From Bilabrum cf. latius (taxonomy: Eukaryota), in the NCBI GenBank assembly GCA_965178125.1, contig OZ237757.1, positions 558,001 to 622,000 on the forward strand: 64,000 bases of DNA, read 5' to 3'. A model generated the notes under the pieces. That model had not been told where the DNA came from. It searched no databases and was given only the letters and a program-made list of their open reading frames with translations. Positions 29,726 through 64,000 of this stretch are shown here, one piece after another; position 1 is the stretch's first letter; every line of letters begins with the position of its first letter. The position numbers and the translations under genes were made by a program.

Positions 29726-29915
29726 TTTGTTGTTGCGTTGTGAGCAGGCGAACAGCAACTGTCGTCACGCACCGCCAACCACGGGCAGGCTCAACGAACC
29801 CGTGGCAACGCACTGGTTTGCGGACAGGCAGCGCAAGCGCGCTTATTACAACCTAAAAGAAACAATCCCGTGAAGGGCACAAACGCCTCGCATGGTCGCA
29901 CGCATCCATCCTGGA

Positions 29916-34043: not shown

Positions 34044-34146
34044 CCTGGACCGAGCAGGTGCCTTCTGCGGAACCTCGTGCACTCAAAGGGCGCCGCGCCG
34101 GCCGTTTGTCCCCAAACTGTTGCTTTGCCCCAGAATTGGCAGGATT

Positions 34147-38800: not shown

Positions 38801-41800
38801 CCAACATATTTTTCACCCGCTGGTGCAGTCCCACCTTTACCATGGTCAGATCCAGGTGGATCACGACCAGCTGTTCCGCTCGGTCTACGCACCTCATCTC
38901 CCAGGAGTGCAGTCACCTCACCGTGCTTCGACCCGACCAGCGTGAACCTTGGGGCCAGCCCGGCATCAGATTCTGTGCCGTGGTCGCTACTACTCGGTAG
39001 CTCGCTGGAAGATTCGCCTGCATTTTCTTGTGCACTGCGCGAGACCAGACCGCTTGGCTGACCCAGGAAGGTGGCCAAACTGGTTCGGGAAGGCTACAGG
39101 CCTCGGCTGCCCTTGAACCCACGTTTTCGATGCGAACGCTCACCATCAGCCCCGTCGTCGGATGCTTGCGACGAGACGGACACTTTACGCTTGCCATGGC
39201 TGGGCAGCTCGCCGAGCAATTCCTCAGGTCGCGCACCTCCGGGACTAGATTCAGGCGAAGTGGGGCTCTGGGAAGCAGCAGTAGCACCCTGCGCAAACGA
39301 CTGGGCCGGTGTCTTAATTTGCAAGCCAGACGGGGTCTCCACCGTGGTGTTGGTGACGCTGCGGGCTGCAGCTGACAGGTCAACCGCATCGATCAGCTCG
39401 GGCGATATAGTTCGCGGGGACCCAATGACACCAACAGACGGCCCTCGCCGTTCAATCCTCTCCTCGACGCGTGCATGGATCGAGCTCTGCAGCGCCGCCT
39501 GCGGCAGGCTATCGAGGCCGCTCTACCTGAGCGCGCTCTGCACATACTGGCTCTTGGCAGCAGCCAGCCCTGCTACATCCGAGGATGAGGCATCTGCCAC
39601 TCCCTCCTGTAGCACGCTCCTCCTGCGGATCCTAGTGATTTGTCCGATGATGTCAGCCTCGCACTGCTTCTGCGTCTGCTCCGAGCACACACCATTCAAC
39701 GAGCCGACCCAGATCCTGGCAGGCCTTTGCTCGGAAAATCCCCTGGCCAGGCCAGCTGCAAGAAGCAGCAGCGGCGGGTCTGGCAGGGCATCCTGTAGGC
39801 GAGCTGCAGTAGCTTCCACTATTTCTTGCGCAGATCGACCATACGTATCCACTAACGCGTCCTAGTCGACCTCTCTACAAGCCGCCCATGCGCCGGAACC
39901 CATGCCCGTGCCAACCTCCGTGACGGGAAGACCACCAGTGCCCACACCAGCCCCGAGGGCGTGCGATATAGCGACACGTGGCTATAGAGGCTGCACGGGC
40001 AATGCCACAGCAGCAGCATAGGTAGGAAGCTCCAGGCTTGGCCGGGCCGGGTCCCCCCAAATGGCGTAGCATACGTCAACGAGCCCCCTAATCTGCGAAG
40101 GATCTCCGCATGCCTGCACCTTGGGCACGTTAATGGACAACTTGCTGTGGCGGGCAGCGGAACCACCGTCCTCTGCACCCGCCTCGCTAGATTTGCCACC
40201 CTTTCCGTCCTCGGTGGACTGGTAGATGCACTGGAGCTCCGTCTCCCTCATAATGGGAACAAGGAAGGCGCCTTTGCTGCTACTGTGCCGACTCGTGTCT
40301 CTGCTGGACACTCCGGCATCGTGGGTGCGAGGCCCAGGTCTTGACCGTACCCTGCGAGAAGATGGCCGATGCCTGCCAGGGTGCTTGGCAGGGGCGGCCT
40401 GCCGGATGCTGGACTCGCTTGATTCATGCAATGCAGCTCGCGCAAGCCAGAGGCTGGACGGATCACCACTAGTCTAACCACCCCATCTGGTGTCCATACC
40501 GATCTTTGCAGCGTCGTATGCGGCCCACGCACGGACCTTTGCGAACCGAATTAGCATTTGAGAAGCGATCCGCCTGCCCGTGAAACGCAGTCCGTCCTGT
40601 TGCAGCATGCGTAACCTGAACGAGGCATCGCGTGGCATGGTCCCGTCATTATGAGGCTCTTCCGAACGCAGCACCATCCTAACCGCCTTGGGAGCGATCA
40701 TTATCCTTCGGTCGTCTGATTCGTCTCCGCTCCAGAGCGCTAACTGCGGGAAATCCGCAAGCAAGCGGAAGAACACGCGCATCTATCGCTTTTTCCGTGC
40801 GGTTCCCTTGTTGGAGACACATCGCAAATCCTTGGTACTGTGTCTATCAACCCCAGACAGGACTCCAAGGGGAAGGAAAAAATCGCCCCCGGTGATCCCG
40901 GGGACTGGGGCTCCGCTAGGTAGCCGAATCGATCCCTCTTTACCCAACAGACCCGTGCTCTCGTCCAGATCCAAGACAGACTGATCATCTCCGTCCTCAG
41001 GCGCAGCAGCTTGAGAGGATACTGTGTCCAGTGTCCCATTAGCCGTCAGGCTGCGGCGAGATGCTGGGGATGCGTGGCTTTCCCCACTAGGTTGCGCGGG
41101 GACATCGCTGTTGCCCCCGTTTGGTGGTAATGCAGCTTGAATCGCCTTCCGAAGCGCACTGGGCGGCCCATGCACGAGCCGGCGTGCAATACGCTTCATG
41201 GTGGCAGGGGCAGACCAGAGTAGTGGCTACGTTCGGTTGAAGGTAGCAATAATGCGGTCCGTCAGATAGTTAATCAACTGGTCCGTTGACGGAGTGTAGT
41301 AGCCCCTCAAGTAGCCCATGTAGAGCAGCCCTGCAGCCCTGCTGCGATGTCGCGGACTTGGGACGTGCCTTCTGCTGGGCAGGCCGAGGGCTCGTCTGGT
41401 GCGGTCGGGGAGCTGGCTGAAGGGCCCGCATGCTGCGGCGCGACGGATCGAGGCGTCTGGAAGGATGCCAATGTGTGCGTACCGCTCATGCTAGCTGTCT
41501 GCACCGTAGGTCCTTCCTCCAAGGCGGGGTGATACGAGCTTGGCCGGTACCTGGCCGACGTGGTTTGGCACCTGGGGCGTTGACTGGGTCGGCTCCTCCG
41601 GGCGGCAATACCGGGCGCACTCCCTTGCCATTGACTAGAAGATCTTGCACCTCTGAGTCAAGTCCGATCCACTCCCAAACACCATCAAGTCACATTCTAG
41701 CAGCACATCCTCCGGCCTCGCTGGTCGCATGGGACTCACGGGTGTGGCCCAGAACGGCCGAGACGGCCCTGTACCTCCACGTGAGCGCTTCGACAAGGCA

Positions 41801-44800
41801 ATCACAAATGGAACCTGCAGCTCCCGCTGCTCTGACATGCGTACGCCTGGTGCTGCCAGTAGTGACTGGGAAACCGCTCGGGCGTGAGACTCCCTCTGCA
41901 TGGACTGCAGCACGGGCGCCTGCCGCGTTGAGCACGCGTGCACCTTGAGTCCCACTATGCAGGTTGTCTGCCCATCGGCAATTGCTTGGCTGTTTTGGCA
42001 AAGTCTTTTAAGCCCAGCCACCGGGTTCATCGTGTTGCCACTTGTCGCTTCCAAGGTGTTGTGTTGTGAAAACACTATGTCTGTCCACCAGAGGGGCTTG
42101 CGGTCCCCTCCAGCTGAGGCCGCCCCACCCAAAAACAATGACTCATGGTCGGTTACGGAAGTAGCTTGGCTAATATGCGCCAGATTTCCCCTGCTTGACC
42201 GCTTAGCACTACTTTGTCCGACGCTAGTTGCTGCAACAGCAGCACTCCCAGCAACGGCTCCTCTCCGTGTAGCCGCCTACTCACATTTGCCAGATGCTGA
42301 GGAGACACGCCTGTCGGTATCTTCAGACGCGGATCCAGTCTCTGGTGTAGAAGCAATAGTGTCCGAGTGTGAGCGAAGCACCGGGGTGCTACCACCTTCC
42401 CCAGCTGAGTTAGACTCAAACCCACCGTCACTGCTCTCCTAATTTGTGGACCCTGTCCTAATTCGAAGCACCTGTGTCAGCCCAGTCTCGGCCCTGGATC
42501 GTGCAGTAGGGCCAACATCATCCTAAAAAATCTGATCCGTCGCTAGAACGGATCCATGGTGCCTCAACTGCAGCAACCCGGCACGGCATGCCTGGGTTCG
42601 ATTCACAAAGCTGTACCTATATTGCATCAGCTCCCACTGCGCTCCCAGCCTGGAAGTGCGAGTAGGCCACCACAGCAGCCTCAAAGCCGGCTTCGCTTTG
42701 CGCCGAGCTGCTGGCCGTTGGCCTCTTCGCGCTTGTGGAGTGCCATCCACTCCGCTTGGCTTCCCGGTCCCAGCATCTGTACGATCGCCCTAAGACTTTG
42801 ACACTCCGGGGCAGCAAGCTGGGACATCGATCTCCAACAATACGCTTCGGCTCATATCACCAGCTGACCTTGGAAATAGGGGCGGATTGCCTTCCTCACG
42901 GAGCGGCATGCCACTCGAAGCAGCCCCCAGTGCCTCCTGCAGCTGGAGGGCCGCCGTCCGAAGCGAGCCACCCAGCACCGACTGGTAAGCAAACACCACG
43001 GTGGCAATTGCCTCCTGACACATAGATAGCGTAGGAATAAGCAGTCCTTTGAATTGCTTGGGAGGTACCAGCTGCAGACCTGGGATCGTCTCCCACGGCA
43101 GCTCCAAACCAGTGGGAATCCCCCGGATCTCACAACCAGGCCCTGCAGGCAAGACTCTCATGTCCATACACCAGGACACGCCCAGCGACCGGAATGGCAT
43201 AAAATTATCACCGTTCCAATCCTCTACATCATCGTCTGCAGCATGCAGTGGCATTGATCCACGCCTCCTCAGGTGCAGCGCATTGCTTGCGAGCCTTCTG
43301 CAGCGGTCCAGAGCCTACTGCCCTAGTCGGCACGTGTGATGGGAGCCTAGCACGTCGCGACTTACGGCTCTGTGCAACGCACCCGATCTTCCGGGACTGT
43401 ATATATCCTTATCTCGCAACATACCACCGATTGTATCGTGGTGCATGGCTGCCTTCAGCTCGACCTATGGGAGGCTCATGAGGGGGAAGTCCACCGATGA
43501 CCCGGTAAGTCCCAGGTCGACAACGTCCCCACCACTTCCCTGGGACGTAGCTACAGTTCTCTGCGCATTGCGCTCTCTTCGCGAAGATGGTGCCCCAGCA
43601 ATGGTAGGCTGCAAGTCACCCCCCCTGCACATGGAGCTCACTCTGTACCCGTGCATGCGAGCTGCAACCTAGCCCCACCTGGACTCAATCGTAGCGGCAT
43701 CGATCGCAGTCATGAAGCCCAGGTCGCAGTGCTCCCTGGCATCGAGGCCCTTTGTCACCAGTGCCTGGACCATGGCGAAGGCGCTTGGGCAGGAGCGGAT
43801 CGAGGAGAGCAACGACGGGCGTAACACCTGGGCGTGCACCTGAAGCACGGCCCTCGTCATGTGCAGCCTCATCTTGCCGTGCACACTGTACCGCAGCCGG
43901 TCCCACCAGGCCAACGAAGGGCTCTGCTGTGTTTGGTGCACCTAGCGGGCATTATTTGCAAACTGTGGACTTAAAGAAGTAGCGGTGGCATTCTCTGCTG
44001 CCGGTCCTACTGGCCGAACCACGGTGTTGGTCGTTCTGCGGGGTGTCCACTCGGCCAGTCGCTTTGATACGTCCCCGAGCCCGTTCAACCTGGCCATGGC
44101 CCAGTCATACCTAGGGCTAGACAGGGTCACATCGAGGTCGTGGTACACCTTGGTGTCACTTTTGGCGGTCCAAGCGTGGATTGAAGGCACCCGCAGCACC
44201 TCACTTGACAAATGCGGTGCGATGGCCGCAGATGGTTGCTCTCCGGTTGGAGGCGGAGTCATGGCTGTCATCAGAGGAGCGGTGCGCGCAACAAACACCT
44301 TGCCTGTGATTCGCGCTCGGTCTGCCGATAGCATCGGCTGCTTCGGCTCGTACCTGATTCGATCCAACGAGGTACCGTCATGCACGACGATAGGCAAATC
44401 ATGTTTCCCACTTACCATTCTACCTTCGTTTACCAGGACTTGCATCGTCGATGCGGCGGCATCGATGTACAGGGGGTCCGGTGATAGCCATGAAAGGCCC
44501 TGTATTGCTCCACCAGTTGCCGTGCTGGACGCAGCTGAATCAAGCGGCCGAATCATGGACGCCAAAACACTTGGATCCTTGCTCGTTGTGCTGAGTCCAA
44601 CGGCGAGCCACAAAGACTTAGCCGTCACAGCGAGCGCGGGAACTTCATCTCCGTGCGGAGGCTTCTCACTGGAAGTACCTACTACAGCTGAATGACGTGG
44701 CACAACAAGGCTAGCATCAGTGCAGGCTAACCGCAGCAACAGCTTTGGTGGACCTTGGGCCGATCGACTATTCGTTAGCCTACCACCTTCTTGTGCGAAT

Positions 44801-47800
44801 AATGGCATGTGCGTCTGAATAAGATCGGTGCAAGCTGAACGGCGTGTCAGCTCCGCACACATTCCACCCCGCACAAACGATTGCCGCAGGACTCTTACCC
44901 CTTCAAACAGGACTCCAGGGGCGACTTCGGTGTGCTGGTATATATGAAAACCAACGGAAAGAACCTGGGCAAGTCCGTTATGCCCGTATCTGGCAGCATT
45001 AGAAGGGAGCGCCCGCTCGAGTGCTTCTACGCCATCCTGAGTGCCATCCTCCGAGGCAAAATTGAGGGCACTTAGGGCCCTCTTGCGCCAATGCGGGCTC
45101 ATAGCCACGCCACCTGGCACGTCTGGACCTACCACGAATGCATCTCCGCTTGCAATAAGCCAGGGAGCATCTGGATTACTCTGGCACTCATCCGCAGGTA
45201 TGGCGTCAGCAGATCTACCGGCTGGTGGAGCAATAGAGAGCCTTGGATACTTGAAAGCCACCGCCACTCCGGAGGGCTAAACTGAGTCTGCAAGCTGAGC
45301 AGCAGGCGAACTGTCAGACTTGTTCGAACCAACAGCTCCATTCACTAGCTTAGCCGTCTCAGCCACAAACCGCATTTCATGCCCACTGGGGAGGGTAGCC
45401 GTGCCCCGAAAGCTGTGGAAGCTGGCACTGAAACCTGCTGTGGGGCCTATCATGTGGTTGCCATGCCTTGATGTTGATGCCTATGCCGCAGGAGGACAAG
45501 GCTTGGCAGCTGCTGATGCATCAACCAGCATCCTTCGCAAGTAGGCGAGGTAGTACACCGTGTCTTCCTATACTTGTATGGATGCTTTGTGCATGTCTAG
45601 ATGCCACGCGCCCTCAGTATGAGGCTACCTTGCAGCTGCAAGCAGATCCCATGATATAACCTTCGCTTCTCTTCCAGTTACCACTGTGAGCTCATCGTTT
45701 CCTGCACGCTGCTTTCCCCCCGTTCGAATCGACATGCATCCCGACTCAGCAAGCCGGATCAGTGGTTCGGCCGACGCTGATGCGCTGGCCCCACCAATGT
45801 CAGTGCTAGTTCCCGCATTCATTGTCGAGCCATTCAGACAGATCTCATACACAACGTAAGACAGCTCATCCGTTTCAATCTGGCGTGCCCGAGTGAACAC
45901 CGACGCGGGCATGTCTTCGATCCATCCCCGTAGCTTTACCATTTCCTCGTGGAGCAGGCCTAGCCGCTGCTGCCGGGCATCGGCTGCCATGTCGGCAACC
46001 TGCACCTCGTCCTGATCGCCAAAGGACCGAACTGCCTCAGCAACGTGTGGGGGACAGGGTTGGCGCAAGACAATAGGTATGCCCTGCTTGCGCAGTCGCA
46101 ATGTTATCGTCTGCAGCGATGCATCGACGGCCATTCCCAGTATGGCGAAGGGTTCGAGAGCTACAGCAGGGGCATCTCCAGCCGGCGCTTGGGCAACGGA
46201 CTCCTTACGGCCTTCGGAGGATGCCTCAGATCTGACTGCAAGGAGCAAATCACGCGCCAGTGGTATTGTTTGCACTGCCTCGTCATACCACGTCTCAACC
46301 GATGCATCAGCCCCACGAAACCTGAGACAGGGTGTGTGCCCAGGCGCGTCCATCACAGCAACCTTGGACTGAGTCATGCTGCAGCGCAGGATAGGCTCTG
46401 TCACGGATGCGAATAGCTTCGCATCAAATGAGCAACATCCTGCAGCGGCGGCAACATCGATCGCTGTGGCTCCGCGCTCACTAACACTCCGCTCAGAGGT
46501 ATCCTGAGTATCAACCGGCGCTTGTGCGCCGCTTGATACCGACGCATCAAGTCGAGTGCAAGCGACTGAAAGCTGCAGCTGCCTTTCACCACCGGCTAAT
46601 CCATCACTCCCTGAGTCTTGGTGCGCGCTGCTGATGTTTTCACTTGCCTGCACGTCCAAGTTCGCCAACCGCACCCGTACCAAGCACGGTTCGGCTTGCT
46701 CGTTGGGTAGGACCCTGCTTGGCGTCTGTCTCCGAGACTCTGGCCCAGCCCTGTATTCAGACGCGCTCGTGATAATTTCCATAGTGTGGCCGTGTTTGGG
46801 AGGATGTGCTAGCAAGCGATCCTTCAACTCTAACATAAAAGTGGCTGCGTTGGATGTGCGCAGGTGCAGCGTGCCGGCGTCGACATCTACCATATTGTAC
46901 CTGGTACAATCCTCCGCATCAACAGCGTCCGCCCCATCTGAGATGCTAGTTGACCGTACATTGCGTCGAAGCAATACACGCAGGTCGTTCAATCGAAGCA
47001 AGGCCCCTGCAAGCGATGGGTGTTGAGCACAATCCAAAGCTGGCAGTGTGCTGTCTAGAGCACGTGGTAGAGAGCCACCTTCAAGCGAAGACGCACCAGT
47101 TGCCTCAATACTGGCTGCTGTTAGGACGAAGTTGGAATTACCAGTAATGCCCTTCTATATGTCTAGCTGTAACGAAGTGCCCTTGCCTTGCACGTGCACT
47201 GGCCGAATGCAGCTAGCTGATTGATCAGTGGTGCCCCCATGGGGGTCCACGCTCACAATCTCGCCATTCACCACGACAGAGTCGATCTTCAAAGAGGGGA
47301 CTAAACCTATAGTGTCAAGAATATCAGTGGCTGCTATCACTGAGCCAGCTCTTAGGCCCGCTGCAATGGCCAGCTGCCGCAACTTCGCAGCTGCGGTCTA
47401 CTACTCTGAGCGCATTGGACTTGCGCTCGGTGTAGAAATCGATGCGCTAGATGCGCCTGCGTTGACTGGCGGCGTCGCTTCTGGTCCGCTATTCCTCACT
47501 GAAGTATCAAAGGCCCCCGCTGCCGTCTGTGTCTCCACTGTCACCTCCAGTTGCCTTGCTGCGCACTGCACAGTGCTGGCAGGACAGCTGGACACGGCCC
47601 GCCCACATACGAGCCTCTGAGCAGCGGGAGACTTGCACTCTATGACGAGGTCTTCCACCTTACAATCTCCTCGTGTGAGTATGAGCCCCTTGCGACCGCT
47701 AGATCGCGGGCTTCCCTACTATTGATCACTGCCCTAGGACTCAGGCAGTCCGGCCTCCTGAGACGCGCCCAAGCCCCTCCCAGCGGTGGTGCTCCCTGCC

Positions 47801-48528
47801 GCTGCCGCCGCAGAGGGGCTGCTGCTTGTCTAAACAGCTCGCGCAGGTCCTATTTTGTCTTGTATACTCACAACCCCTGCATATGCTAGCGAGCCTATTC
47901 GCAAATATGCCTCCCCTGCATCGATTGCAACCACCACCTTGATGTTGCATGCTTGCACCTGCCGCTGTGGGGGACAGCAGGCAAGCTCGTTGCATTTGAT
48001 GCGCACCTCGACCCTTCGCAGCAGCCAGAGGATCCAAGGTGATAGCATTCGTAATCTTTTTGTTAGCAAGTTGATGCCTGTCAGTATCTGGGACTGCAAC
48101 GGTGAGCGAACGGTGGGCACAGCAGCGCGCCCTTCCATCTGCCTCTAGCTCACAAGCACGCCATCTAAATCAACGCAAATGGCGATACGTGATACATCGG
48201 ATGTTTTATCTACAGTACCCGTGAGCAATCCAAAACTTAACGCAAGCTTGGCAAACGATATGTTGTACAACCCGTCGGACGTCGACATTCGGAATTCTTC
48301 AATGACTCCGATATCTAAAGAGCTAGCTTGTGCAGTGCAAGATATTTTTGGATACAAAAAATGCACCAGTGACAGCGTGAGGCCAATTGAGTTCCGAACA
48401 GATGCGAAAACAAGCGCGGCAACTACTAGTCCAAGTAGAACGCTGGACGAAACATCGAATCCATCAGAAAATCCAGCTGAGATCGATAGAAGTCCAAGCA
48501 AAATAGATAAAACAACTACACGTATCAT
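35803..48528 (-). CDS. FMP27/Hobbit/KIAA0100/SABRE (BLTP2)-like bridge lipid-transfer protein, ~4,240 aa
   Basis: About twenty track ORFs in one frame, separated by TAG. N-terminal hydrophobic helices, SLAWWDRLRYSVHGKMRL, FMPFRSLGV, and C-terminal Apt1-like VYDHVEISAFP...LLAFF and VYIKYFRVGEIRL. Stop TGA 35803. Confidence 0.8.
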
Positions 48529-48927: not shown

Positions 48928-51900
48928 TCAGCATGGCTGGCTTGGCACAACAGCCAACGCCGCGGCGTCACACAGTTGTCCACCATTCTCACAGAACGGC
49001 CCAACACCTTCAGCATTCTTTGCAGCCACTCGCACGTAGTATTGCTGGTTGGGCAGCAACGCCTGGCCGTTGGCCGGAGACAGAGTCATCACGAACGGGC
49101 CTGCCGGGCTCGCAGCCGCAGCCACGCTGTAGTGGAACACCCCACCGTCCGTGGCCGTATCACGGAAGTCGGGCTGGGCAGACCATTCCACGATGTACTC
49201 TGTAATTGCAGATCCTCCGTCGGCTTGGGACTAGTAGCCCATGCCTGGCTGCGGGCAAGCCCCCGGCTGCTCCGGATCCGACGTCCCACCCCCAGCGCAG
49301 AAGATCCCGTGGGCTGGCACGGTGGGCGCCTGCAGAGACACCAGAATCTAGGAGCCGCATTGCACGCTTGGGTTGCTCAAACTACTCGCGAGAACCACCG
49401 ACGTCGGCTTCCCGGGCAGCTGCCTTGATGGAGCCACCCCAGCAGGGGACGGGAGCGTGGGCAGCCCCTCTCCCACTCGGTTCACCGCGGAGACGCGCAC
49501 GTAGTACAGCTGGCCTGGCTGCAGATCCCGGATGGTGTACGCCATGGACGCTGCCGCCCGCACCTCGGCCTTCCCCTTGTGCGGTGCCAGTGCGAGGGAT
49601 TCGAACTCCGGGTCCACGTCCCACTCCACGACGAAGGCGGTCACGTTGTCGCCACCGTTGTCCAGGGGCATGCCGAATCCGACGGAGATCATGGTGTGGG
49701 ACGTGGCCTGGGCCCGCACGTTGATGGGGCCCATCGGTAGGGACCTGGGAAACTCGAACAGTGGCGTAGGCCCTTGCCCCTCCCCGACTCCTTGCGCGTT
49801 CACGGCGTACACGAGCACCCAGTAGCTCCGGCCGGGCACCAGACCAGAGAGGGTCTTGCTGTAGGGACCCCCATCTGGGATGTACAACAGCGAGGTCTCT
49901 TGGAATCCGGTCATTGCCATGTTATCAGCGTACCTAAGGCGGTACTCCGTGATGGCAGAACCGCCATCGTCTTGCGGCGGGCTCCATGTGACTCTGAGCT
50001 GGGTCCCGCTCACGACCGTCAAGCTGGCAGCTCGCACCCGGCCAGGGACGCGCACAGGAGCGACAAACGACCGACTGGGATCGGTTCGGCTGATAGCAGC
50101 CGTGGACTCGCCATATCCAACTCGGTTGTAGGCCGTGACCCGGGCGTAGTAAGGCCGTCCCTGCAGCAGCTGGGTCAGCGTTTTCTCGCTAAGGCAGTCC
50201 AGCGTGCTTTCCCTCTCCCCCTCAGTACGAATGGCAGCCGACACAGACACCGGAGACCCATCCGCACTGGTCAGGCTATTGTCGGCAACTGCCACCTATA
50301 CGTTGCCGACGTCACCCATGAACGTGATTGCCCACTCATGGGCACCGCTGCCGAGGTCGGTCCGCTCCACATTGACTCCGTCCGCTTCAACGACGCTGTC
50401 CAGGTAGTTCAGGTGGCTTTGCATCGACCCGGGGTTCGACACCGGATTTTCATCGCACGGGCGGTTGGATGCACCGATAATGGACACGTCCTCCACCACG
50501 CAGAACACGCCGCTACCACTTCCTACCGTAGCAGCAGCGTTCTCGTCGCTCATGAGAGCCTGGGCGTCGTATCGGATCGGCTCAGAGAGCGCCTCTGTCG
50601 TGTTGCTCTCGCTCCACACCCTCAAGCGGAAGGTACCGTTCGTGATGGCCGCGCTAGACGTGGTAGTCACCGTCACCACCTCGTGTGCTGCATCAACGGC
50701 GCAACGCTCGGTCTTTGCCCTGACTTGGCCCCCAGGCCCGTAGTCGGCAGACTCGGACCACTCCAGCCTGTACCCGAGGATTCCCGCTCCGCCATCGTTC
50801 TGCGGAGCATCGTAGTCCAGCTGCAGGCGCGAGCTGCTGGTTGGGTCGACAGCCAGGGTAACGTTCTCTGGGGTGCCTGGTTTCTGCAATGGCACCCGTA
50901 GGACCGCCGTTGCCTCCTGCGCGACAGTGGCAGCTCCCATTGGGGCCTGTTCGGCCAAGTTGCAGAAGACTGCCCCGGCCGGGGCGCATGCAGCTGCTGC
51001 TGGTATGCCCGCGCCGAGAGCGTTAATCGCAGATACCCTCCAGGCGTATGCAGTCCCAGCCACGAGCCCAGCGGTTCTGTATGAGAATTGGTCGGGCGGC
51101 ACCTCGACCGAGCCCTTGCTGGGAGGAAGCTCCCCGGGCCTGCAGGCCTCACACACCCGTCGTGTGGTGTTTGTCAGCTCGTTTGACGCAGAGAAGACGG
51201 TAGCAGCTGCTGCCGAAGACCCAGCCAGAAGGGAGTCGTCGATCTGCAGCAGGGGTACTTCACTTCCAGCCTCTCTTGCAAAGGTGATGATGTATCTGAA
51301 GCCGTCTGGCGAACCTCCCAAACTGGTAGAGATGTTCCCAATCGTTTCGATCGACACATCGACGGGCGATCGCACGCTCTCAATGACGGTCAGCGCCTTT
51401 TGCAAGTGCTCCGGGTCACACCCAGCCTGCAGCCAAACCGAGGGGCTGGAGCCGCCTGCTCGTAATCGGAAGAAGCCAGAAGGCACTTCGTTATTCGCAG
51501 TGTTGTCGGTGAGCTCGATGACCTGGATAGCTGACGAGCCTGCTCGGCGCCTTCCATCCATGTTCCGATCCGGATCCACAATGTTAGTAATGCAATCTGT
51601 TCGCAAAGGATCTGCGCTATTGCAACCGCTGGCGGAGCGCACGTTGGATGCATCGACCACCAGGGCGGGTACGTTGGCCTTGTCCCCAACGAAAGTGACA
51701 TCCCAGTAGTATCCAGTGGGAGTCTGGCCGCGGCTGACCTCGATGTGCTCCATCAGGTAGGACGTACCTGGCGCGGCATTCGGGTCCTCAATGTGCATCA
51801 GATGCCTCCGGAAATCGGCCGCGCTTGCGTCCTACGGGATTTGCACGGAGGTCCCGCCGAGATACTTGACCAGCATGGACCCCTGCGTGACAGGGACGTT

Positions 51901-54900
51901 GAGGTCCAGGCGTCCCTCGGAGCTCTCAAGCACAACTCGCTACACTTCCGGTGCATACTCATCCGACCACCACTCTACAAGGTAGCCGCTGACTGTGGCT
52001 CCTCCATTGCTCGCTGGTGCCGACCAAGACACCGTTGCTGCAGACTGAGGCTCACTGTTCGGTTGGACCAATTCGGTTGTGACGCGTACGTCCCGGGGCG
52101 CGGGAGCGGTAGTCATAGGCACTCCCATCGCCACAGAACCGGCTGCCCCCACGTACTGTCCCGCTGCCCCCGTAGTCCACGCTCCGGAACCAGCCTGCGA
52201 ACGTGCTCGGACTCGCACGTAGTACGTGGTGCCTGGTATGAGTCCCGTAATGTTGTGGATGAATACACCTCCAGAAGCGAGGGGTACAAGCTGTAAAGAG
52301 GCTACAGGAACCGGGGTGCCTTCGTCGTACGATGGACTCGAGAACGATGCAGACGTATCGTATGCAACATCATACTCGGTCACAGGCCTGCCACCGTCCG
52401 TTGCTACTGGCGGGAACTGCACCCTGAGCTCTGAACCAGAGAGCAGCCGAGCTCGCACGAACTCAGGAGCGGCCGGGGGCTAGAACGCGGTCTCAACCGA
52501 CTCTACAGCTGCCCAGTTGCGGTTGTCGACCCACTGCAGCGCTGGCGCTCCGTCGTAGGTCGGCGGCAGCCACTGCTTGTTGGAATCAAAGGGGACGGCA
52601 TTTTCCGCACAGACGCGCGCAAAAATTACCGTACCGTTTGTGATACTGGACGGTGAGGCTGAAGCAGTATTCAGCTGCTGGATTGTGTACGTGTATGGCG
52701 GAGCCTAGCCGGACAGCGATGCCATCTCAATCACCTCAACACCTGATGGTGCAGGTCGCCCGGGCTCCAGTCCCGAAGTGGAGGCCGCCAAAGAGCGGAA
52801 GTCATCGGCAGTATCCCACTCGATCCTGTATCGCAGCACCGCAGACCCGCCGTCCTGCACAGGCGGGCTCCAGACGAGCTGGACCTCGCTGTCCGACAGC
52901 ACGATGGCGCTGGCGCCGATTGGCGGCTATGGAATCTCCATCGGTACCAATGATGACACCAGTGAAGCTGCACCAGCACCGATCTGGTTGTGCGCCATAA
53001 TACGCGCGTGATACTCCTCGCCGCGAAGCAGGCCTCCAATCACGAGGCAGCTGTTGCAAGCTGAGTGCGTCACGAATGCCCGAGCCTCCGTCGGAGTGAG
53101 TGCGTCTTTCCACACGTGCAGCATCTCAATGTCACCTTCCCAACTGATGAACTCGACAGTCCATTCGAATCCGCCAGCTGCTCGAGCCACGCTGAGTGCA
53201 CGCTGTCCAGGTCTGCGGCTGATGTGATCGACGGTCGTGTGGTCGTCGGCCCGTCCAAGCTCCACTCGCATACCCCCAAGATGGATGCCACGGACGCCGA
53301 ATTGCTCGTCGCCGACCCAAATCGTATCTCCGACCGACATAGTGCCAGCAACACCAGGGGCAGTCAAATCCACAAATGAGGACAACGCAGTTGGCACACT
53401 TGCAGTCACAGGCAAATCTAACCGAGCCAGCACTCGAGATACATCCACGGCATCTACTCCCTGAATAGACTCCACTGCATTGCGCACTGCTGCCGCGGTA
53501 GCATCGAATGCAAGCTCGGCCGTCCTTGCTCCGCCAAGGCCGTATGCTAGGGAGAAGTGACCACCGGAAACGACAGTGAATTCATCCGTAGGGTCGCCGA
53601 CTATCAGTTGCACTCGCTGCACCCTTCGAAGCAACTCAGTGGACGTGATTTCAAGCGTGCGCTTGTCTGGCGACTGAAGCGTGGGACTGCTATCAACTTC
53701 GACTGTGTACTTCGTAATCGCCGCGCCACCCGAGTAGCTTGGGGGATGGAACGAGAGTGCGAGCTTGGATCCAGACTCGGCGATTCCAAGGCTCACCTCA
53801 CGCACCGACACAGCAGCACCATCGCCCTCAAGCTGTGTTGCAATGCCCTGCATGGCCTCGACGTCTCCAGCAGCGTAGAAGGTAACTAACCACGAGCTGC
53901 CGTCCTATGAATCAAGCACAGCGGCCTTTGATACTTGAACATTCGCGATGCTGGGAAGGGCCTCGAGAGCCTCTTTGACGCTGAGGCGGTTGTCCCCTGC
54001 GATAGGCTCTGCCGGGGCATCGTATCCGAGCATTGCGGTCTGCCTGCCAGCGTATGACAGGCGCCATTGACCACGCAGTGCGTTGCTCTCACTGACCGTG
54101 CGCACCTGCACGGCTGCCTCAGATCCAGTCAGTGACGACACCGCTTCCATCTGGGACACGTCACCCTTTGGACCAACAAAGGTGACAAGCCAAGTGAAGC
54201 CCTGGGTAGTGTCAGGGCCAGAGCGTGATACTTCCACTGCATTCGAAATGGAAGGGAAGTACAACCCGTTGAGCGCCAGCTCTACGTCGGATGCAGTGGC
54301 GTTCCAGCTGAGTGAGGTCGTGGAGCTCCCGTCCAGTTTCAAGTAGAACAAGCCACCAACCGCGTTGCGGGTAACCTCCACCGAAACGTCGCAGCGCGGG
54401 GACGAAGCTCCAGTTGACTACAGGCTCGAGCTTTCGCATTCAATGTCTGGAACAGCACCGCTTGATGTGAAGTCTACATCAACCATTGCGACGTACCAAG
54501 CGAACCCACCCACCACGTTAGCGATGGACCTGGTCACTTCAACCTACTGTATTCCTGGTAGCTGCTCCAAGCTGGCGGTAATGAGCTGTGCGCTGGAATT
54601 GTGGAACAGCAGACGGTCAGTCTCATGACTTTCGGCCCACGTTGATACCGTAGATACGGTAATCTGGCTGGACTAGCATCCAGTTGCAGACGCGTTAGCC
54701 GCTACTATCCACGCCGGCATCAGATCGCCTGCCACGTCGTCGCTCCAGGATACCGCGTCAATCAAGTAGCGGAAACCAAAAGAATCAGCGGCCCCTCCGT
54801 CCAATTGTCTCTAGACAGCCACTGCATTAATCGATGTCCCGGCAACATTACGCTGTGTTCCGATCAGGGCATTTGCAAGCTCAGAGGAAGTAGCTCCAAG

Positions 54901-57900
54901 TCCCACGCAAGATGATGAGCCTTCCGTATGCGTGCTGGCGTCGCTAGAGGATGCCTGTAGCGCAAATGTAGATGAAGGCGATGGTGTGGTCGCAGAAACA
55001 ACTACCGTGGTTGTCTCAGAGATGGCTACCATCGGCTAGACAGACGGCGAACCATCAAAGCATCCCACTGCGCTCCCCATACCGTGAACTTCAACCGACA
55101 ATTGCTGGCCCTGCACCGCAGGCGCAAAGACTCGTATGAGGCGAGCAGTATTCAGGGCAGCTGCAGCACCTGCTGATGCATACGCAAAGCCTGCTGCGTC
55201 GATGTATTTCGCCTTTATCCCCTGTCCCAGGGAAACACCGGCACCATCTATGGTACCGTTCAGCAGTGCAAGAGCCTGCTCAATCTGCACGAGGTCGGCA
55301 CTAAAGTCAATGCATTGCGATATCAGCGAGGTCTGGTTCTCAGCACTGCTGCTGTTCCCGTACCGGAGTCGGAATTGGGGAAGCGACTCCATAGGGTCGC
55401 TGCTACTCGAAGCCAAGGCAATGGAGAAACTCGGATCCGAGAGTGCGATGCCACCCCACGACAGGTCAAGCTTACCACTGAGCGATTCACCGCGGGGCAC
55501 CGAGGTGCGAATCGCTTGAATTTCAGGAATGTATGCTGCATTTGTACGAATTTCTTGCACCTCGTCCTGATGCGTGGCACCAGTCGAAATTGCCTGCACC
55601 TCGTACATGCGAGTGGCTACACTTAGACGCACGGCCTGAGGCGCAGCAGGAGGGGCCACCGGAATATCAGAGTCGACGTTCGACCACGGACCAAGTTTGG
55701 CCGGTGGCATGGGCAGCTCATCATTTGACGATGCAACACGTCCGAAGTACTGAACACCCTCTTGCAGGCCACCGACAACGTAGGAAGATGGCAGCTTGCC
55801 GGCGACGAAGCTGTCAAACACCCAGCCAATGGCTGACGTTCCACTGAGAGCACTTGCTTCAAGATCAAGACTAGGAATATCCCCCACATTCGTTTCGAAT
55901 TCTACTCCCCACGACAAGCCACTTGACTTGTAGACTGGATACACCCCAGTGGCACCCTGGAATGAGAGCTCATCGGACGCATCGCCTGATAGGTTCGCAA
56001 GTGGGATTGTTGTGGCCGACAGCACGTCGTCCATACCACGAGTTGGGCCCATCTCGCTTACCCTTGAATCAAATGATGCAACCTCTGCGTCATTCGCAGG
56101 GTTAGAGTCGCATGCCGACAGAGCAATTGGTACGCTTGTGTTCATGGTAGCTTCAACATGGATGACATACACGAAACGCGAGGAAGAGGCCTCTTCGTAC
56201 CTGGTTACGAAGACAGGTACCGAAAGGCTTCCCTCGGATTCCGCCAAGCGAATCGCTGCAGCCGCATCATCAGTCATACCTGTCGACACGTTTACGAAAC
56301 CCGGATTCATGGCCCCAATGATAGCAAGTTCTACCTCAGCAGCAGACGGTGGGCCAGATACAGACCCAACACACACAGACGTGCTGCCACCAAGAGCGGC
56401 CATATCGAAGCCGAACTCTAAAGTCGTTCCAACCGGGAGTACAACCTCGAACTTCGGAAGAGGCACGGACCGAACAGCAAACGTCTCAGCCAGATGGAAC
56501 ACTTCCTCATCCGCCACCGAGGTGGTCGATGCGTTCTTATCCAGCTGCGCGAACCGGCCCAACCCAGCCTCTATCACTGTAGCATTGAACTCAAGCGCAC
56601 TGGTTGAGTTCGGGAAAACGACTGGATCGCAGACGGCTGCGGATGCTTGACCCGCGTTACCGCTATCAATTGCGAACATGAATGGCACACCATTGAAACT
56701 ATTTCTCGGCGAGACAGCATCGAACGATCCCGCAAATCTGACTCTGTATACTAGCCCAACTCCAGCCGTGCCAGCACCCGGTTCTGGCAGCAGCGCGACA
56801 GATACTGGTGTTCCAACAAGGGTGGACAGAGCGGCCTCTAATTCGGCTGCAGAGGACGCGACCGGGACGCAACGACTGAATCGAGCTGCTGTTTGGGTTC
56901 CTTGGGACGATGATGGTGGGATGTATCTGAGCCGGTACTACCCGGTCGCCCCACTCGCTGCACTCACATTGGCTGTAGCGCTGAACACGCGCATTTCAAC
57001 TACAGCTGCACCAGTGCTCGTCACCACGAAGGATTCTCCACTGATCTCAACTCGCTGCCCATCATATAGATCGCCTCGGTTTACTGTTGCTAGCTCCAGC
57101 TGGCTTGCTCCAGCCGCCAGCCGACCAGTGCCGAGCAACGTCTTCCCCAACAATGCGGCGCTGCCGTGCCGATAACCTGCAGGTAGACCTCCGACTCGGA
57201 TAGAGTCTCCGGCGGCCAGCAATGTTCGAGCATCGGGAGGCGCACTCACGCCATCGGGACCTGCCACAAGCTCCACACTGGCTCCGCCAAAGGTCGCTCT
57301 TCCGAATCCGATCAGGCTGCCAAGCAGTTGCTGTCTATCGACCGTCACTGTTCCAATATCTGGCAGGTCTTCCAAGAACCCGTCGAGCGCTGCGGCACTC
57401 ACATCATATGCCATGCTAGGAGTGCTCGACCCATAGAGCGACACCGCGAAGTTGCCACCCAAAGGCTCCAGGCCGTCGATAGAGGAAACTTCAACCCTTC
57501 CATTGGTGCCGCCGATTCCAGAATCGGACACCTAGAGCTACAACGGGTTCCCAGTGCCGTGTGGGTACGCGATACCACCATCGAATGCGCCTAGGTTGCG
57601 GATAAAGTGTACGCTAACTTTGTACCCACCCTTGCGCGATGTGGGCTGCACATGTTCAGCATTCCACCCTGCTCCCCAGGTACGGTCAATGCTCACATGC
57701 GCATCGACGACGCTGCTCAGCTCCTCCAGCTGCAGTTCTATCCGTCGAGCCGAAGAGGTTAACGAAAAAGTTCTGGCTCCGGTGTTGTGACCAGCAGCGC
57801 CAGGCATAGTCACGTCAAATGTTCCATTCAGGCCGACTGAGCCGGTTTCAACCTCAACGGCATCAATACCCGCCGATGAAGTGTTCGCACAGGCCGTACA

Positions 57901-60900
57901 AGCTCCAACGCCCGACTCTCCCAGCAACATGGGCGTGTGGATCAATGGGTCGGTAGCAGAGACATTAAACTGCGTGCTCAACAGGTCGATATCGCCCGCA
58001 CCAGCAGGCACCATTCCACGGTTGGCCGTAAACGTCACTGTCCACTAGTACGTCCGGTACTTCGTTGTCCGCATGCGCGAAACCATAACATCGTCATACG
58101 CATCTACCGACCTGAGTCCATACGCGAGATCGTCAGTACTTGCATCAAAAGCAACCACAGCGGAAGAATTGCCACCAATTCGCATCACATCTGATTCGAC
58201 GCTAAACTCTCCAAATAACACGTTCCCTCGAGTTGCTTCCAGTACGGTCGCTGTCACGTTGTTGCCGGCCAACTGCGGCTGAGTCGAAGCAGAATCCAAC
58301 AGAATGCTAAGGTCAGGTACATTGCCGGGAGATGGGCATGACTAGACTCCCGGCAAAGAACCCTCTGAGCATTGAAGTGCTGATTCTGCGTCTCTAAGGA
58401 AGGTTATGGTCCACGTGTATCCTCCAGAGAAAGGCACATCTGTCGAGAATCTCTCCACGGCTACATCGCCCACATTTGCAAGGTCTTCTAACACAGACTC
58501 CATCGAATAGTCGGCGTTTTCTGTTCTTGAAGCCGCAATATCGTGCCGGATCAGCACCGTCTGCTAGTCCACGCAAACATACGGAGTCCCGGAATCACCG
58601 CACGTCTCGATACCTTGGGCTTCCTCGGTAGTGTTGAGGCCAAGCCTGAAGTATCCATGCACTGGGTCGGTGCCTTCGTCGCCCACATCGACCGTAACTG
58701 AGCACGTTGCCGAAGCAATGCTAGGTGACGTATCCTCCAGCCGCGAGTCGTCACATACCGCAGTTGGGATGCGTGTTCCTACGTTCCTGCCCCACGCCTG
58801 GGAGTAGCCAGTATTCCAGTCGTGGGATGAATCTCCAGAGTGAACATTAGAGGTGTACGTTATGCGCCACACAAACTCCTTCTACTAATTGACGCGCTCG
58901 CTGCTTATGTTGACGGGCAAGCCTCGTGAGACACTCACGCTATGAATGGTTGTGAGTGCCTCGAGCTGCGTGGTGAGCACGGCGGCCGATGCATCAAAGG
59001 TAATCTCGCCGGTGGTTTCTCCGTCAAAAGTAAGCTTGAAGGTGCCATCGAGTTGGTTGCCTTCCTCAACGGTACCAGTCTCGATTCCAACGTCACTGTA
59101 GGAGCCTGCCGTTGACACGGTGGCATCGCACTGTCCAAGACCGAGCTGGTCACATGCAGGCCCAGCCTGCAGCTGTGGCACGTTGCCACCGTTCTCCGGA
59201 GCAACAAAGGTGATCAGCCACGTGAACCCACCGGCTGCATTTGGAGTGTACGACTGCAAGGCAACGTCCACCTCTGGAATTACTGACACATTAAGTCCAG
59301 TTGCAGAGTCCGTCATATTCATGCCCTCCAGAGCTGCTTTAATTGAGATGGCGACCTAGTCAGCGTCGATTGGAAGCTGTGGCCCTAGTTCCACAGACTG
59401 AGTGCGATGGGAACCATACGATAGGAAAAAGCTCCCAAGGATGCTACTTCCTTGCTACGGCACGGGAGAAGAAAGCTACACCTGCGCGGCGCGACTTGGC
59501 GCTCCGGCTCGTGGCGTACCCGATGAGAGATTAGTCAGGGTAGGAGACAGGCCGTTAATTGAAACGTACGCAGCGTCCACGGGACCAACGGAGATAAGCG
59601 AGTCGTTGAAATCGCCAGGGTGGCTCACAAAGGTGATTCTCCACGAGTAGCCGCCAGCCCACCCTGCGCCGACAGCAGGCGTTGGTACTGGCGCTGACAC
59701 GGTCACCGTCTCTCCAAGCTGCTAGAACACTTGCTCAAACTCACCAGACGATGCGTTTGCCGGAACAATTGCGCTGGAGTTCCCATCATCAATGGAAACC
59801 CAGAAATGCCCAGTAATTTCAGAGCCGTCAGTGCAGTTCTGTGCATCGAGGGCAGAATCGCACACCGAAAGCTCCACGACACCGTTCGTGCTGACGACAG
59901 GGTTTCCGCTTGCCTGGCTGATTGCCAAGGCGTCCAAGTTTCCATCCACGCCCGTAAATGTAACGAACCACACGTACCCGCCGGAACTGTCCCGGTCACT
60001 TCTCGAGACTGTCACTGATTGGATTGCGTGAAGTGCCTGAAGCTCCTCTTGCACACTACCGGCCCCATCCGAAGTTGTTGCTCCAGCGTTGTGGTCTACT
60101 CCAGGCGTAGTGGCCTGCACGCCAAACTGACCGCGTGAATCTGTGTAGGTCAGCACAAACTGCCCATCGTAAATCTCGTTGCCATTCTATGTCACTGATT
60201 GCTGGATTGCCGCGGTGTCCGCAACCCCATCACCATCGGAATCGAAGTTGGCTGTGGATGCTGCATCTGTGCCAGGCAAAGTCGCGGCGAGGGGCCTGAG
60301 AGCGAATGTAGACGTAGAGGTCCTGCTAGGCGGAATATCTCCATTCACACTCTCGCCTGAGAATTCTACTAACCAGCCTGCATAGTTGGGGTCGCTCTAA
60401 TCGCGGGCAAGTGACACATTTAGCTAGCCTGAAAGGATTGGGAACTCTGCTTCTATCGCCTCTAAGAATTGGCTAGCGTTCATTCCAGCGTTGAACGCGG
60501 ACGATCCGGATTGCGAAGGCCCACAGGATGAGCCGCAGTTGCACAGCAAGCAGCCGCGCAGGTCAAGCTCGAGACCGAAAGTTGCCTGCGTTCCGAGCGG
60601 GAGGTCGTCCCGCCCGGCCTATGTATGTGTGCTCGTGTACACCGATGGTGATGCCACATAGTCATTCACAGTGCCTACAGCGCCAGGATGAGCGCATGTA
60701 AAAACGATGCGACCGGTTGCCTCGTCCACCTGGGATAGCACATCCTGCGACCTTGGCACCGTTGCACTTATTCCTCCCGGTGCTCCCATGGTGTTGGACA
60801 GACCGCCTTGATGGAGCTCAACTGATTCAGCTGTGGCATTCAAGATATCAACCAAAGCTGAGTTCGCTGTCAGATTGACAACCACAGCCTGTGAGTTCTC

Positions 60901-63900
60901 CACCGACCCGTCTGAGTCCCACTCATAGACTACCTGGTCTGACGGAGACCCTCCGCAGTTAATCGCGAACTCCCGGTCATCAAGGCCATTAGGTCCATTC
61001 CCAATATCAGTTGATACCACTACTAATGTGAGCTCGGACGCCTACGTGCCATTCCTGTCGCGCAGCTCCAGAGCGTGCACCTCGTTGACATCATCGGAGG
61101 CCACGCGGATTACCTGCACCTCGGGAACCCTTGTGGCCGACGTGACAATTTCCTAGACTTCATCCACGTTGTTTCCAGTCGCACGAACGAACTGAACTTC
61201 ATCGCGATCAATCGTCGATGTCCTAAGGGTTTGTACCTGAGGTAGCACAGGCCCACTCGAGATCGCAACGGTCTGTACCTCATCGGTACCGTTGACAGTG
61301 GTTGTGAGAGTCTAGATTTCATTGTGCACGTCCTCCACGATTTCGATCGTCTGCACCTCGATGCCAGTCTCATTTAGCTCTACCGAAAGGACTTGCACTT
61401 CATGGACTACAGGCAGGTTGGTGCGCTGCAGATCGGAAGAGTTAAAGTGCTCAGTCGTGTCAATCTGTAGCTGGAAATACTGCAAAGTTGAGCCACCATC
61501 ATGAAGGGGCGCCGTCCATTCGGCGGATACTTGTTGGTTGTTGATCGATCGCACTGAAAAGTCACGAGGTGCGGTTGGCTCCTGGTCGCTTGTGGTAGCC
61601 GTTGGCGGCTTGGGGTGGGCGGCGGGCCCAAACCCTACTGAATTCCTGGCCGATACCCGCACAGCATACGTTTTCCCGGGAACGAGCTAGGAATCAATGT
61701 TGCCGGTAGAAACATTCCTTGAGCCGATAACAAAGCTTAGCAGCTGGGATGACGCGCGAGGCGCCGGGACAGATGCTTGCGTCACTAGTCGTCTCGATGC
61801 CTCAAGAGCCGGCCCGACCTGACGCCTAGCTGCTGGGCTCAGGGAGCTACCAAGCTCTATGGCTGTTGACGCAGATATCGTAGTGCTGTCCTGTGGTGGG
61901 GCACCGACAGCAGAGAATCTGGTCTCGTCCCATTCGATGACGTACTCGTCAATTTGGCTTCCACCGTTGCCACTGTAAATTAGCTGCTCTGCCGTTGGAG
62001 CCTCCCACACGACTCTGATTTCCACAGCGGACAGCACCTGCAGCGCAACAGCTGCTGGGGGCCCAGGCACTCGCATTCGCGGGATGGCTGAATGTGTCGC
62101 GGCATATGGTCCATCGCCCCTGTCATTTGTTGCCAAAATCCTCACGTAGTAGCGCTGCCCTGATGTGAGACCGTCAATGTTAGTGTAGAACTGGCGCTCG
62201 CTGCGCGCAGTTGAACTCGTGATCGTAATTGCTGCAGGGTCGTCCACCACCACGCTATAGTCAGACACGTTTTGATCCACGAAAGACTCGCTTAGCGACC
62301 ACTATACGAGGTACTAGAATACGGGAGAACCACCATCCTACTAGGGGTACTGCCACGATAGCTTGAGCGACGTATCGGAAAGCACGTGTAGTGCGGATAC
62401 CCTCGGAGCGCCAGGCGCCGTTCGCGGCAGTTCGAATCGGGGGTGGGTGAACGTGGATGGTCCGAATCCATTCAATGCATTCTTCGCAGCGACTCGAACT
62501 CCGTAGGCACGTCCTGCTTCCAGCCCCCCCAGCTAAACCGTGTACAAACTGGTGGAGCCAACTGCTTCTAGCTATACTACAGCATAGTCACGAGGAAGCA
62601 CGCCTGTCTGAACGACAGCAACCTCAGCGTCTGCTCCCGGACCAGTGATCGCAGAGGTGGAAATCTCTAGCGTTGGAACATCTCCAAGTTCCCCGACAAA
62701 GGTGACAACCCAATCGTACCCCAACCCATTCGCGCGTCGCACAACAGACACATCAGACACGGCAGCAAGAGCTTCAAGGCGGTTCTCAAGCATATCTGAA
62801 GAAGCCTCCACATCGATGAGTTCCGTGCGCTCCCCACGGAAACCTAGCTCAAAGTACCCGCCAATTGGCTTCTATCCCTGTCTCTCGGTTACAACGGAAG
62901 CAACCACATTTGTTCCTGACCAGCTGGTTCCAGGTAGCGTGATCATCTCTGGCACATCTCCCACGTGTGCCGTCTCTATGAACGTGATGCGCCAGTTGAA
63001 GCCGTTCCCGGATACCCATACGGAGTAGTCGCCCTACACTGGCCCGTTCCATGTGCCAGGCTGTAGCGCAGCATTAGGATCAGCTGCCTTTGACAGGACG
63101 AACGAATCAGCACCTCCAGCACCTGCGGATCCAGGCGCTCTAGAAGCATCTGATGTCACTATGAATGTGTTGGCTGTCTCCGAGTCTGCATGGTCAAAGG
63201 CAGTCAAAAGTCGGACTGCAGTGACCCCGGGCTGAAGAGCAATTGTATCAACAGTGCTATCCAGACGCGTCACATGCACGAATCCAGTGCCATTAGTTGG
63301 GTCGATTTCCTGGCGGGCCCTGTACAGGCCAGGCAGTCTCTTCCACGACGGTGTTCTAACGACCTCAACGTTCTGCACAGAACCAGTCCTCTCCAGGATT
63401 GCTTCCAGCTGACTGGCGGTGGCATCGTGCGGGATGTCTTCAGACACCTCCGAGCCAAACTGTACTCTGAAGCTGCCCTGGATATCATTCAAGTCTGCTG
63501 TCGTGCTCACAACCTGCACTTCTTCCACTCCGGACGGGCGGGCGGTCCCAATCGCGCGCGCTATTGCCGACACAGTGATCACCTGGACTTCATAAACAGG
63601 TTCCGACGCGAAACGTTCAACCCTGTATGACTCAACTGGACTGCCACCATTGTCCGATGCCGCTGAAAACTACACTTGGAGCTGGGCTGCACTTGCAACG
63701 GATAGTTGGGGGCTCAATACTGGCCCTGGCTGGGTTGAAACGAGTACTCGAGCACTCGACTTCGCTCCAGTGCTTGCACCCCTGCTGTTAAATGCGGTCA
63801 CACGTGTGGAGTAGCCATTGCCACTCTCCAGCTGGTTGACGACCACTCGTAATGGGTTGGTCCCGCGCACCAACTCACTAGCGAACCCACGCACGTTCAT

Positions 63901-64000
63901 TCCGATGCAACCGGAGGTATCGACACCCATGATGCCGAGATTTCCGGCACCTCGTACAGTCTCGTGGCTTGTGTGAGCGAATTCAACCTTCCATTGGTAG
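48928..64000 (-). CDS. Giant fibronectin type III repeat protein, >5,000 aa (5' end outside window)
   Basis: More than twenty track ORFs in one frame, broken only by TAG. Repeated W..P..DGGS.I..Y...W and YYVRV.A.N..G.G FN3 motifs interleave with EVQ-initiated / W.VTF...GDV repeats. Stop TGA 48928. Confidence 0.9.

Follow-up and report, generated by a model that had tools for sequence, protein, structure and literature searches.

Reading of in-frame TAG codons as glutamine in the gene of a giant FN3/repeat protein and in neighbouring eukaryotic genes

How are the TAG codons read that interrupt the largest gene of a 64,000-nucleotide stretch of contig OZ237757.1 (positions 558,001 to 622,000, assembly GCA_965178125.1)? 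The whole stretch is called the window below. The gene in question encodes a giant, surface-type protein composed of FN3 domains and other repeats, and it is open only when TAG is read as sense. A preliminary description had proposed glutamine (Gln), because three of the TAG codons occupy the Q position of a recurring E[VI]Q motif that otherwise uses CAG or CAA. This reading is supported, mostly by evidence beyond that description: alignment columns of homologues, statistics on an orthologue and a gene for an ESF1 homologue. The giant gene and its motif-bearing parts are the following:

48928..63999, minus strand: open reading frame (ORF) of the giant FN3/repeat protein, 5,023 codons with 43 in-frame TAG, TGA stop
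63496..63591, minus strand: two EVQ units outside the arrays (residues 137-168), both with CAG at the third place; the orthologue L001 (see below) has TAG at the first
61045..61401, minus strand: first tandem array, nine E[VI]Q units of 13-14 residues (residues 867-985)
61312..61314, minus strand: TAG at residue 896, NEI[TAG]TLT, in register in the 13-residue array
61153..61155, minus strand: TAG at residue 949, DEV[TAG]EIV, in register in the array
55486..55602, minus strand: second array, three units (residues 2800-2838), third-place codons CAG, CAA, CAA
51940..51942, minus strand: TAG at residue 4020, PEV[TAG]RVV, at the junction after an FN3 domain (Y.VEWW-x6-EVQ)

The 5' end of the ORF lies beyond the window edge. 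Pfam fn3 (PF00041) matches a number of segments distributed over both halves of the protein (E=3.3e-67 and 9.2e-23; 223.1 and 80.7 bits, gathering cut-off 25). Translation of the minus-strand ORF places the three TAG codons (51940, 61153, 61312) exactly at the third place of E[VI]Q, and the CAG or CAA copies quoted for comparison are all present: EVQVLSV (residue 867), EVQTIEI (881), EVQTVAI (907), EVQEIRT (2813) and EIQAIRT (2826). The units of the first array lie at residues 867, 881, 894, 907, 921, 934, 947, 960 and 973, and their third-place codons are, in this order, CAA, CAG, TAG, CAG, CAA, CAG, TAG, CAG and CAC. The TAGs at residues 896 and 949 are therefore in strict register with Gln codons. 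When the Q column was tabulated as proposed in the preliminary description, using [EQ][VI]x.[IVL].[TVSIAL], 22 copies were obtained with CAG in 8, CAA in 4, TAG in 3 and other residues in 7; three of the latter seven are a one-register echo of EVQV.

Across the whole protein, the third place after E[VI] is taken by 3 of the 43 TAGs (7.0%), 11 of the 179 Gln codons (6.1%) and 36 of the 4,801 codons for all other residues (0.75%). By Fisher's test, TAG differs from the rest (P=0.0048) and does not differ from Gln (P=0.74). Within the gene, TAG is separated from leucine with P=0.0011, from glutamate (Glu) with P=0.022 and from tyrosine with P=0.06. The claim that this internal control needs no database holds in part: the enrichment of TAG in the motif is genuine, but taken alone it does not cleanly exclude tyrosine or Glu. 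The within-gene motif control is real but thin.

Homologues provide a broader comparison. A full HMMER scan with residues 860-2059 as query yielded 593 proteins at E<=0.001. The best 150 of these 593 were used, and the column counts were taken from BLASTP of the whole giant protein against them. At none of the three motif sites do the homologues mainly align another residue with TAG, which the preliminary description had named as the outcome that would speak against Gln. Column 896 is Q in 34 of 43 homologues, column 949 in 34 of 46 (L in 5) and column 4020 in 23 of 40. At residue 949, Q is found in the 70%-identical fragment P0156 and L in the 55%-identical fragment P0187. For residue 4020, the 22 best-scoring homologues have Q in 18 cases, V in 3 (one of them a one-column slip of EVQ) and S in 1, and those with Q have in common Y.VEWW, six residues, and then EVQ.I. 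A search with the region round this residue returned only two generic FN3 matches, and a search for named giant homologues only two matches, neither of them named. Arrays of the motif are present in 82 of the 150 homologues. Of the 422 copies of E[VI]x.[IVL] in these proteins, 398 have Q at the third place, 7 have H, 2 have L and a single one has E, so that Gln is almost invariant at this motif position throughout the family. These comparisons show the three motif TAGs to be ordinary Gln codons at a place where Gln is nearly invariant.

A further comparison is with L001, a metagenome contig of 10,525 bp (guanine plus cytosine (GC) content 0.54) that encodes a relative of the giant protein. Only when TAG counts as sense does it form one uninterrupted frame of 3,508 codons (1-10525), which holds 32 TAG, no TAA and no TGA. 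The code is therefore shared by at least one further organism, whose version of the giant protein is 54% identical. L001 is collinear with window residues 1-3414 at 53.8% identity over 3,443 columns; residue 4020 is not covered. An intron or frameshift at the TAG sites could be ruled out, as the alignment is collinear and ungapped there. L001 has CAG opposite the window TAG at residue 896 and CAA opposite that at 949. Conversely, the window has CAG at residues 139 and 909, where EVQ units of L001 have TAG.

In all, 35 window TAG sites are aligned, and L001 has Q at 8 of them (CAA 4, CAG 4) and TAG at 4. The 32 TAG sites of L001 face Q in 13 cases (CAG 10, CAA 3), TAG in 4, T in 4, E in 3, V in 2, D in 2 and A, P, S or a gap in one each. 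A likelihood test was applied to the 58 pairs of TAG with a residue, with substitution frequencies taken from the window-L001 alignment itself. The log-likelihood is highest for Q (-129.7), followed by E (-155.4), K (-169.4), S (-173.3), L (-229.0) and Y (-244.0); by these values leucine, tyrosine and serine were rejected as readings of TAG. The partner of TAG is Q in 21 of the 58 pairs (36%), while true Gln is conserved at 45%. After removal of the five sites preceded by E[VI], Q still scores better than E (-124.0 vs -141.6) and is best in 1,912 of 2,000 bootstraps.

Gln or TAG occupies both sequences in 73 columns. In window/L001 order, these comprise 48 QQ, 13 Q/TAG, 8 TAG/Q and 4 TAG/TAG. 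If TAG and CAR (CAA or CAG) were used independently, about 2.8 TAG/TAG pairs would be expected. As four are observed, TAG behaves as a synonymous Gln codon at equilibrium. Over evolutionary time, TAG is shown to be interchangeable with both CAG and CAA.

A closer relative is represented by short proteins of 87-92% identity, which appear to be standard-code ORF pieces. Such fragments have Q at the window TAG residues 1127, 1271, 1508 and 1706. Eight pieces from relatives (at least 60% identity) end opposite a window TAG (3), Gln (4) or Ser (1). Ends at TAG or Gln positions would be expected if in-frame TAG stood at Gln sites in the relative, too.

The evidence extends to other genes of the window, of which three are needed here:

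11388..12884, plus strand: ESF1 homologue, 498 codons with 7 TAG; Pfam RRM_ESF1 E=2.9e-44
12144-12146 (codon 253) and 12282-12284 (codon 299), plus strand: ESF1 TAGs in conserved sequence
19097..29758, minus strand: Rav1/DMXL-like ORF, 3,553 codons with 29 TAG, no in-frame TAA or TGA; Pfam Rav1_C and WD40 repeats
35803..48528, minus strand: Hobbit/BLTP2-like ORF, 4,241 codons with 39 TAG, no in-frame TAA or TGA; weak Pfam match

Under the standard code, the longest ORF of the window has 634 codons, and the 45-64 kb region holds short ORFs only. Reading through TAG opens ORFs of 5,023, 4,241 and 3,553 codons; reading through TGA or TAA has no such effect. NCBI table 15 reads every window TAG as Q and opens these ORFs. 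Seven genes contain 134 TAG among 15,976 codons, and TAG amounts to about one fifth of the Gln codons. The three giant ORFs (12,800 codons, 111 TAG) have no in-frame TAA and no in-frame TGA. The other two frames of the same genes contain 9-25 TAA and 50-150 TGA each; since the off-frames hold both triplets, their absence in frame is selective. CAA and CAG occur in the ratio 138:329 in the three ORFs, and about 47 TAA would be expected if TAA were a Gln codon, vs none observed. Thirteen ORF ends could be assessed: 11 are TGA, 2 are TAA, and none needs TAG as stop.

In the ESF1 homologue, the closest relative, P0002 (71% identity over the conserved part, BLASTP), has Q at both codon 253 and codon 299. 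Among 120 homologues, 79 have Q in column 299, and most have S, R or T in column 253. For the Rav1/DMXL-like protein, yeast Rav1 (9cop) aligns V and K at two TAG sites, which as a single distant sequence is not informative.

Several observations weigh against TAG as an ordinary Gln codon. Opposite many of the 35 aligned window TAGs, L001 carries a residue other than Gln: S in 7 cases, D in 4, E in 3, L, T, V and A in 2 each and R in 1. A column-profile likelihood over all 43 TAG sites gives Q -120.5, K -124.1 and E -124.4, a small margin. In the FN3 column 566, 34 of 57 homologues have E and 14 have Q, and the L001 codon is GAG; column 1426 is E in 35 of 99 homologues; and both residue 1548 and residue 1705 are E in fragment P0127 (89% identity). 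The two ORFs that end in TAA are weakly supported genes without a family match. The final 49 codons of the Hobbit-like ORF include five TAGs (35836-35952, minus strand; residues 4193, 4203, 4209, 4217 and 4231), a density of about 10% vs about 0.9% elsewhere and about 1% in non-coding frames. A Gln-rich tail, a wrongly placed gene end or a different behaviour of TAG near 3' ends could lie behind this cluster; it is unexplained and leaves room for TAG terminating there. Furthermore, neither a transfer RNA (tRNA) gene (ARAGORN) nor the gene for eRF1 was found within the 64-kb window.

The E-rich columns raise the question whether TAG specifies Glu, with the Q-like columns arising from frequent E/Q exchange. 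Such codes exist: UAG is Glu in one uncultured oligohymenophorean ciliate, and UAR (UAA and UAG) is Glu in Blastocrithidia. In addition to columns 566 and 1426 and fragment P0127, the three E residues of L001 opposite window TAGs are encoded by GAG, and so are the three of the window opposite L001 TAGs. E ranks third in the broad profile test and second in the orthologue tests. However, true Glu meets Gln in only 6.8% of cases, vs 21 of 58 for TAG. The log-likelihood of Glu lies 25.7 units below that of Gln, a gap of 17.6 once the motif sites are removed, and only 80 of 2,000 bootstraps favour E. In the homologous arrays, the single E among 422 third-place residues also speaks against it. Consequently, it is highly improbable that TAG stands for Glu.

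The Hobbit-like cluster bears on a second alternative, an ambiguous TAG that is mostly Gln inside genes and a terminator in some contexts, for instance near the 3' end of an mRNA, in the manner of context-dependent codes. The true end of this ORF could be one of the upstream TAGs, and the sample comprises 13 ORF ends only. On the other hand, none of these 13 ORFs needs TAG as stop, and the ESF1 frame ends at a TGA (12882-12884) four codons past a conserved C-terminal motif common to P0002. Untranslated sequence fails to explain the cluster, as 10% exceeds the approximately 1% TAG of non-coding frames. Ambiguous decoding is therefore considered very unlikely.

Finally, a Gln protein might be made under the standard code if U-to-C editing turned TAG into CAG in the mRNA. 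Editing would explain the Gln columns equally well. Contigs of four sequencing runs from three studies have no differing letter where they cover the stretch, both array sites included; one of the four may be the source of the assembly, and none is on record as RNA. They are identical to the window, so neither a TAG/CAG polymorphism nor transcript ends are visible. No run on record as RNA contains the stretch. Yet about 134 specific edits per 16,000 codons would be necessary, at TAG only and in at least three related organisms, and we know of no precedent for such U-to-C editing in nuclear genes, although the literature was not searched for one. In-frame TAA, which is one edit away from CAA, is absent, and a constraint on decoding fits this better. 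The chance that editing accounts for the pattern is accordingly negligible.

Taken together, the window is very probably nuclear DNA of a GC-rich, intron-poor microbial eukaryote in whose cytoplasmic translation UAG is read as Gln and UGA (mostly) and UAA terminate. The GC content ranges from 0.50 to 0.64 in 4-kb steps, is mostly near 0.6 and amounts to about 59% overall, and the window derives from a contig of at least 79.8 kb. A prokaryotic or phage origin was ruled out by the eukaryotic housekeeping genes. In a single-gene FastTree of ESF1, the window and P0002 fall outside land plants, green algae, fungi and animals; this tree contains no named protists or metamonads and does not place the organism.

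As to mechanism, the decoder of UAG would be a tRNA-Gln whose anticodon is CUA, which differs from tRNA-Gln(CUG) by a single mutation. A tRNA with this anticodon would be unable to pair with UAA. In addition, eRF1 would have lost or weakened its recognition of UAG. Where UAG is read while UAA remains a stop, a CUA-anticodon tRNA is required, and the stop-recognition motifs of eRF1 are usually altered as well (PMC5304391). UAR-to-Gln codes presumably arose via mutated tRNA-Gln genes (PMC11687900, PMC5304391).

The code is of the known UAG-only-to-Gln type (NCBI table 15), here in a genome of about 59% GC that does not look like that of a ciliate. Reassignment of UAG without UAA is rare and is described for Gln in one fornicate and three ciliate lineages, with the species Iotanema spirale, Protocruzia tuzeti, Hartmannula sinica and Trochilia petrani (PMC11687900). 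Iotanema spirale (Fornicata) resembles the present case in that UAG is Gln and both UAA and UGA stay stops (PMC5304391), but UAA is its primary terminator, whereas here TGA ends 11 of 13 ORFs at about 59% GC. The three ciliates likewise read UAG as Gln and keep UAA as stop, an assignment deduced from UAG codons that stand in frame where Gln is conserved; in contrast to the mostly TGA-ended, 59% GC window, UAA accounts for 86.9-98.3% of their stops, and their GC content is 27.4-53.6% (PMC11687900).

The UAR-to-Gln code (NCBI table 6) of many ciliates, hexamitin diplomonads, Streblomastix, Amoeboaphelidium and some ulvophyte green algae also turns stops into Gln. There, UAA is a sense codon, unlike in the window with its lack of in-frame TAA. 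UAG is decoupled from UAA, as here, in the rhizarian exLh and TARA phyllopharyngeans, where it is leucine, and in Scotinosphaera, where it is serine (PMC11687900); both residues were rejected for the window. In crAss-like and other gut phages, TAG is Gln, too (code 15; PMC9523058), but this is a late-gene strategy of phages in bacteria, while the genes of the window are eukaryotic housekeeping genes. Besides Iotanema, no GC-rich or non-ciliate UAG-to-Gln lineage was found in a literature search with limited coverage of subscription journals.

The lineage is possibly new. It might be proposed tentatively, and with some doubt, that the organism of the window, the relative of about 90% identity and the organism of L001 form an undescribed GC-rich, non-ciliate clade with an ancient UAG-only-to-Gln code and mainly UGA stops, and that this represents a further independent origin of the code. 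The reassignment would have occurred long ago in this clade because its members have already reached equilibrium in their use of TAG and CAR at conserved Gln columns. If this is true, the rare state in which UAG is decoupled from UAA would exist in a composition opposite to that of the AT-rich lineages known for it. Whether the change requires low GC or UAA-dominated termination is a question that a further lineage of high GC content and mainly UGA stops would help to address. In practice, TAG has to be read as Gln to annotate the genome: the standard code breaks its largest genes into dozens of fragments, and proteins of relatives appear as such fragments in public sets.

Apart from FN3 domains and EVQ units, the giant protein is also built of units of about 90 residues with the consensus G.F.L...T...DA.A....L..L....V.V.R....GY.W.VTF....GD. 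The E[VI]Q.I.T stretch corresponds to the position of the first strand of this unit. The unit (e.g. 62641-62907, minus strand) has no Pfam match, and a PDB sequence search with the repeat region gave no matches. An AlphaFold model of one unit was computed from 22 paralogous and orthologous units; it has a predicted local distance difference test score (pLDDT) of 70.5 and a predicted template modelling score (pTM) of 0.61, with a poorly resolved first strand. Its best matches are domains of tail-tip and capsid proteins of mycobacteriophage Bxb1 (Z 11.1 and 9.2, 22-25% identity), the top one with a root-mean-square deviation of 1.8 Å over 86 residues at 22% identity. A domain of phage Patience is also similar (Z 7.7). 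The model shows a likeness in predicted fold only, not in function. Plus-strand ORFs that overlap the giant gene (e.g. 50204-52048) were dismissed as GC artefacts without homology.

The Rav1/DMXL-like ORF contains a 105-bp tandem repeat (23536-24013; 4.6 copies, 99% matches). Each full 35-residue copy has an in-frame TAG (GKDS[TAG]DGGGGG), so TAG was copied along with recent duplications. Further Pfam matches in the window are a protein kinase and MACPF. An ESM Atlas search with the kinase domain returned generic kinase clusters with no usable taxonomy. A tandem segmental duplication of about 4.2 kb (1140-10300) is present in three copies (starting at 1140, 5372 and 9665) with 88-99% identity. 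It contains the 3' part of the MACPF gene and, on the opposite strand, an ORF of 434/473 codons without in-frame TAG. Two overlapping long ORFs at 31488-35253 (plus strand; 851 and 751 codons, 7 TAG each) have no family match, and one of them ends in TAA, among only two TAA-ended ORFs. The ESF1 gene (plus strand) and an ORF of 961 codons that resembles a multi-pass membrane protein (minus strand, TAA stop 12928-12930) converge with 43 bp between their stops, a spacing that points to a compact genome.

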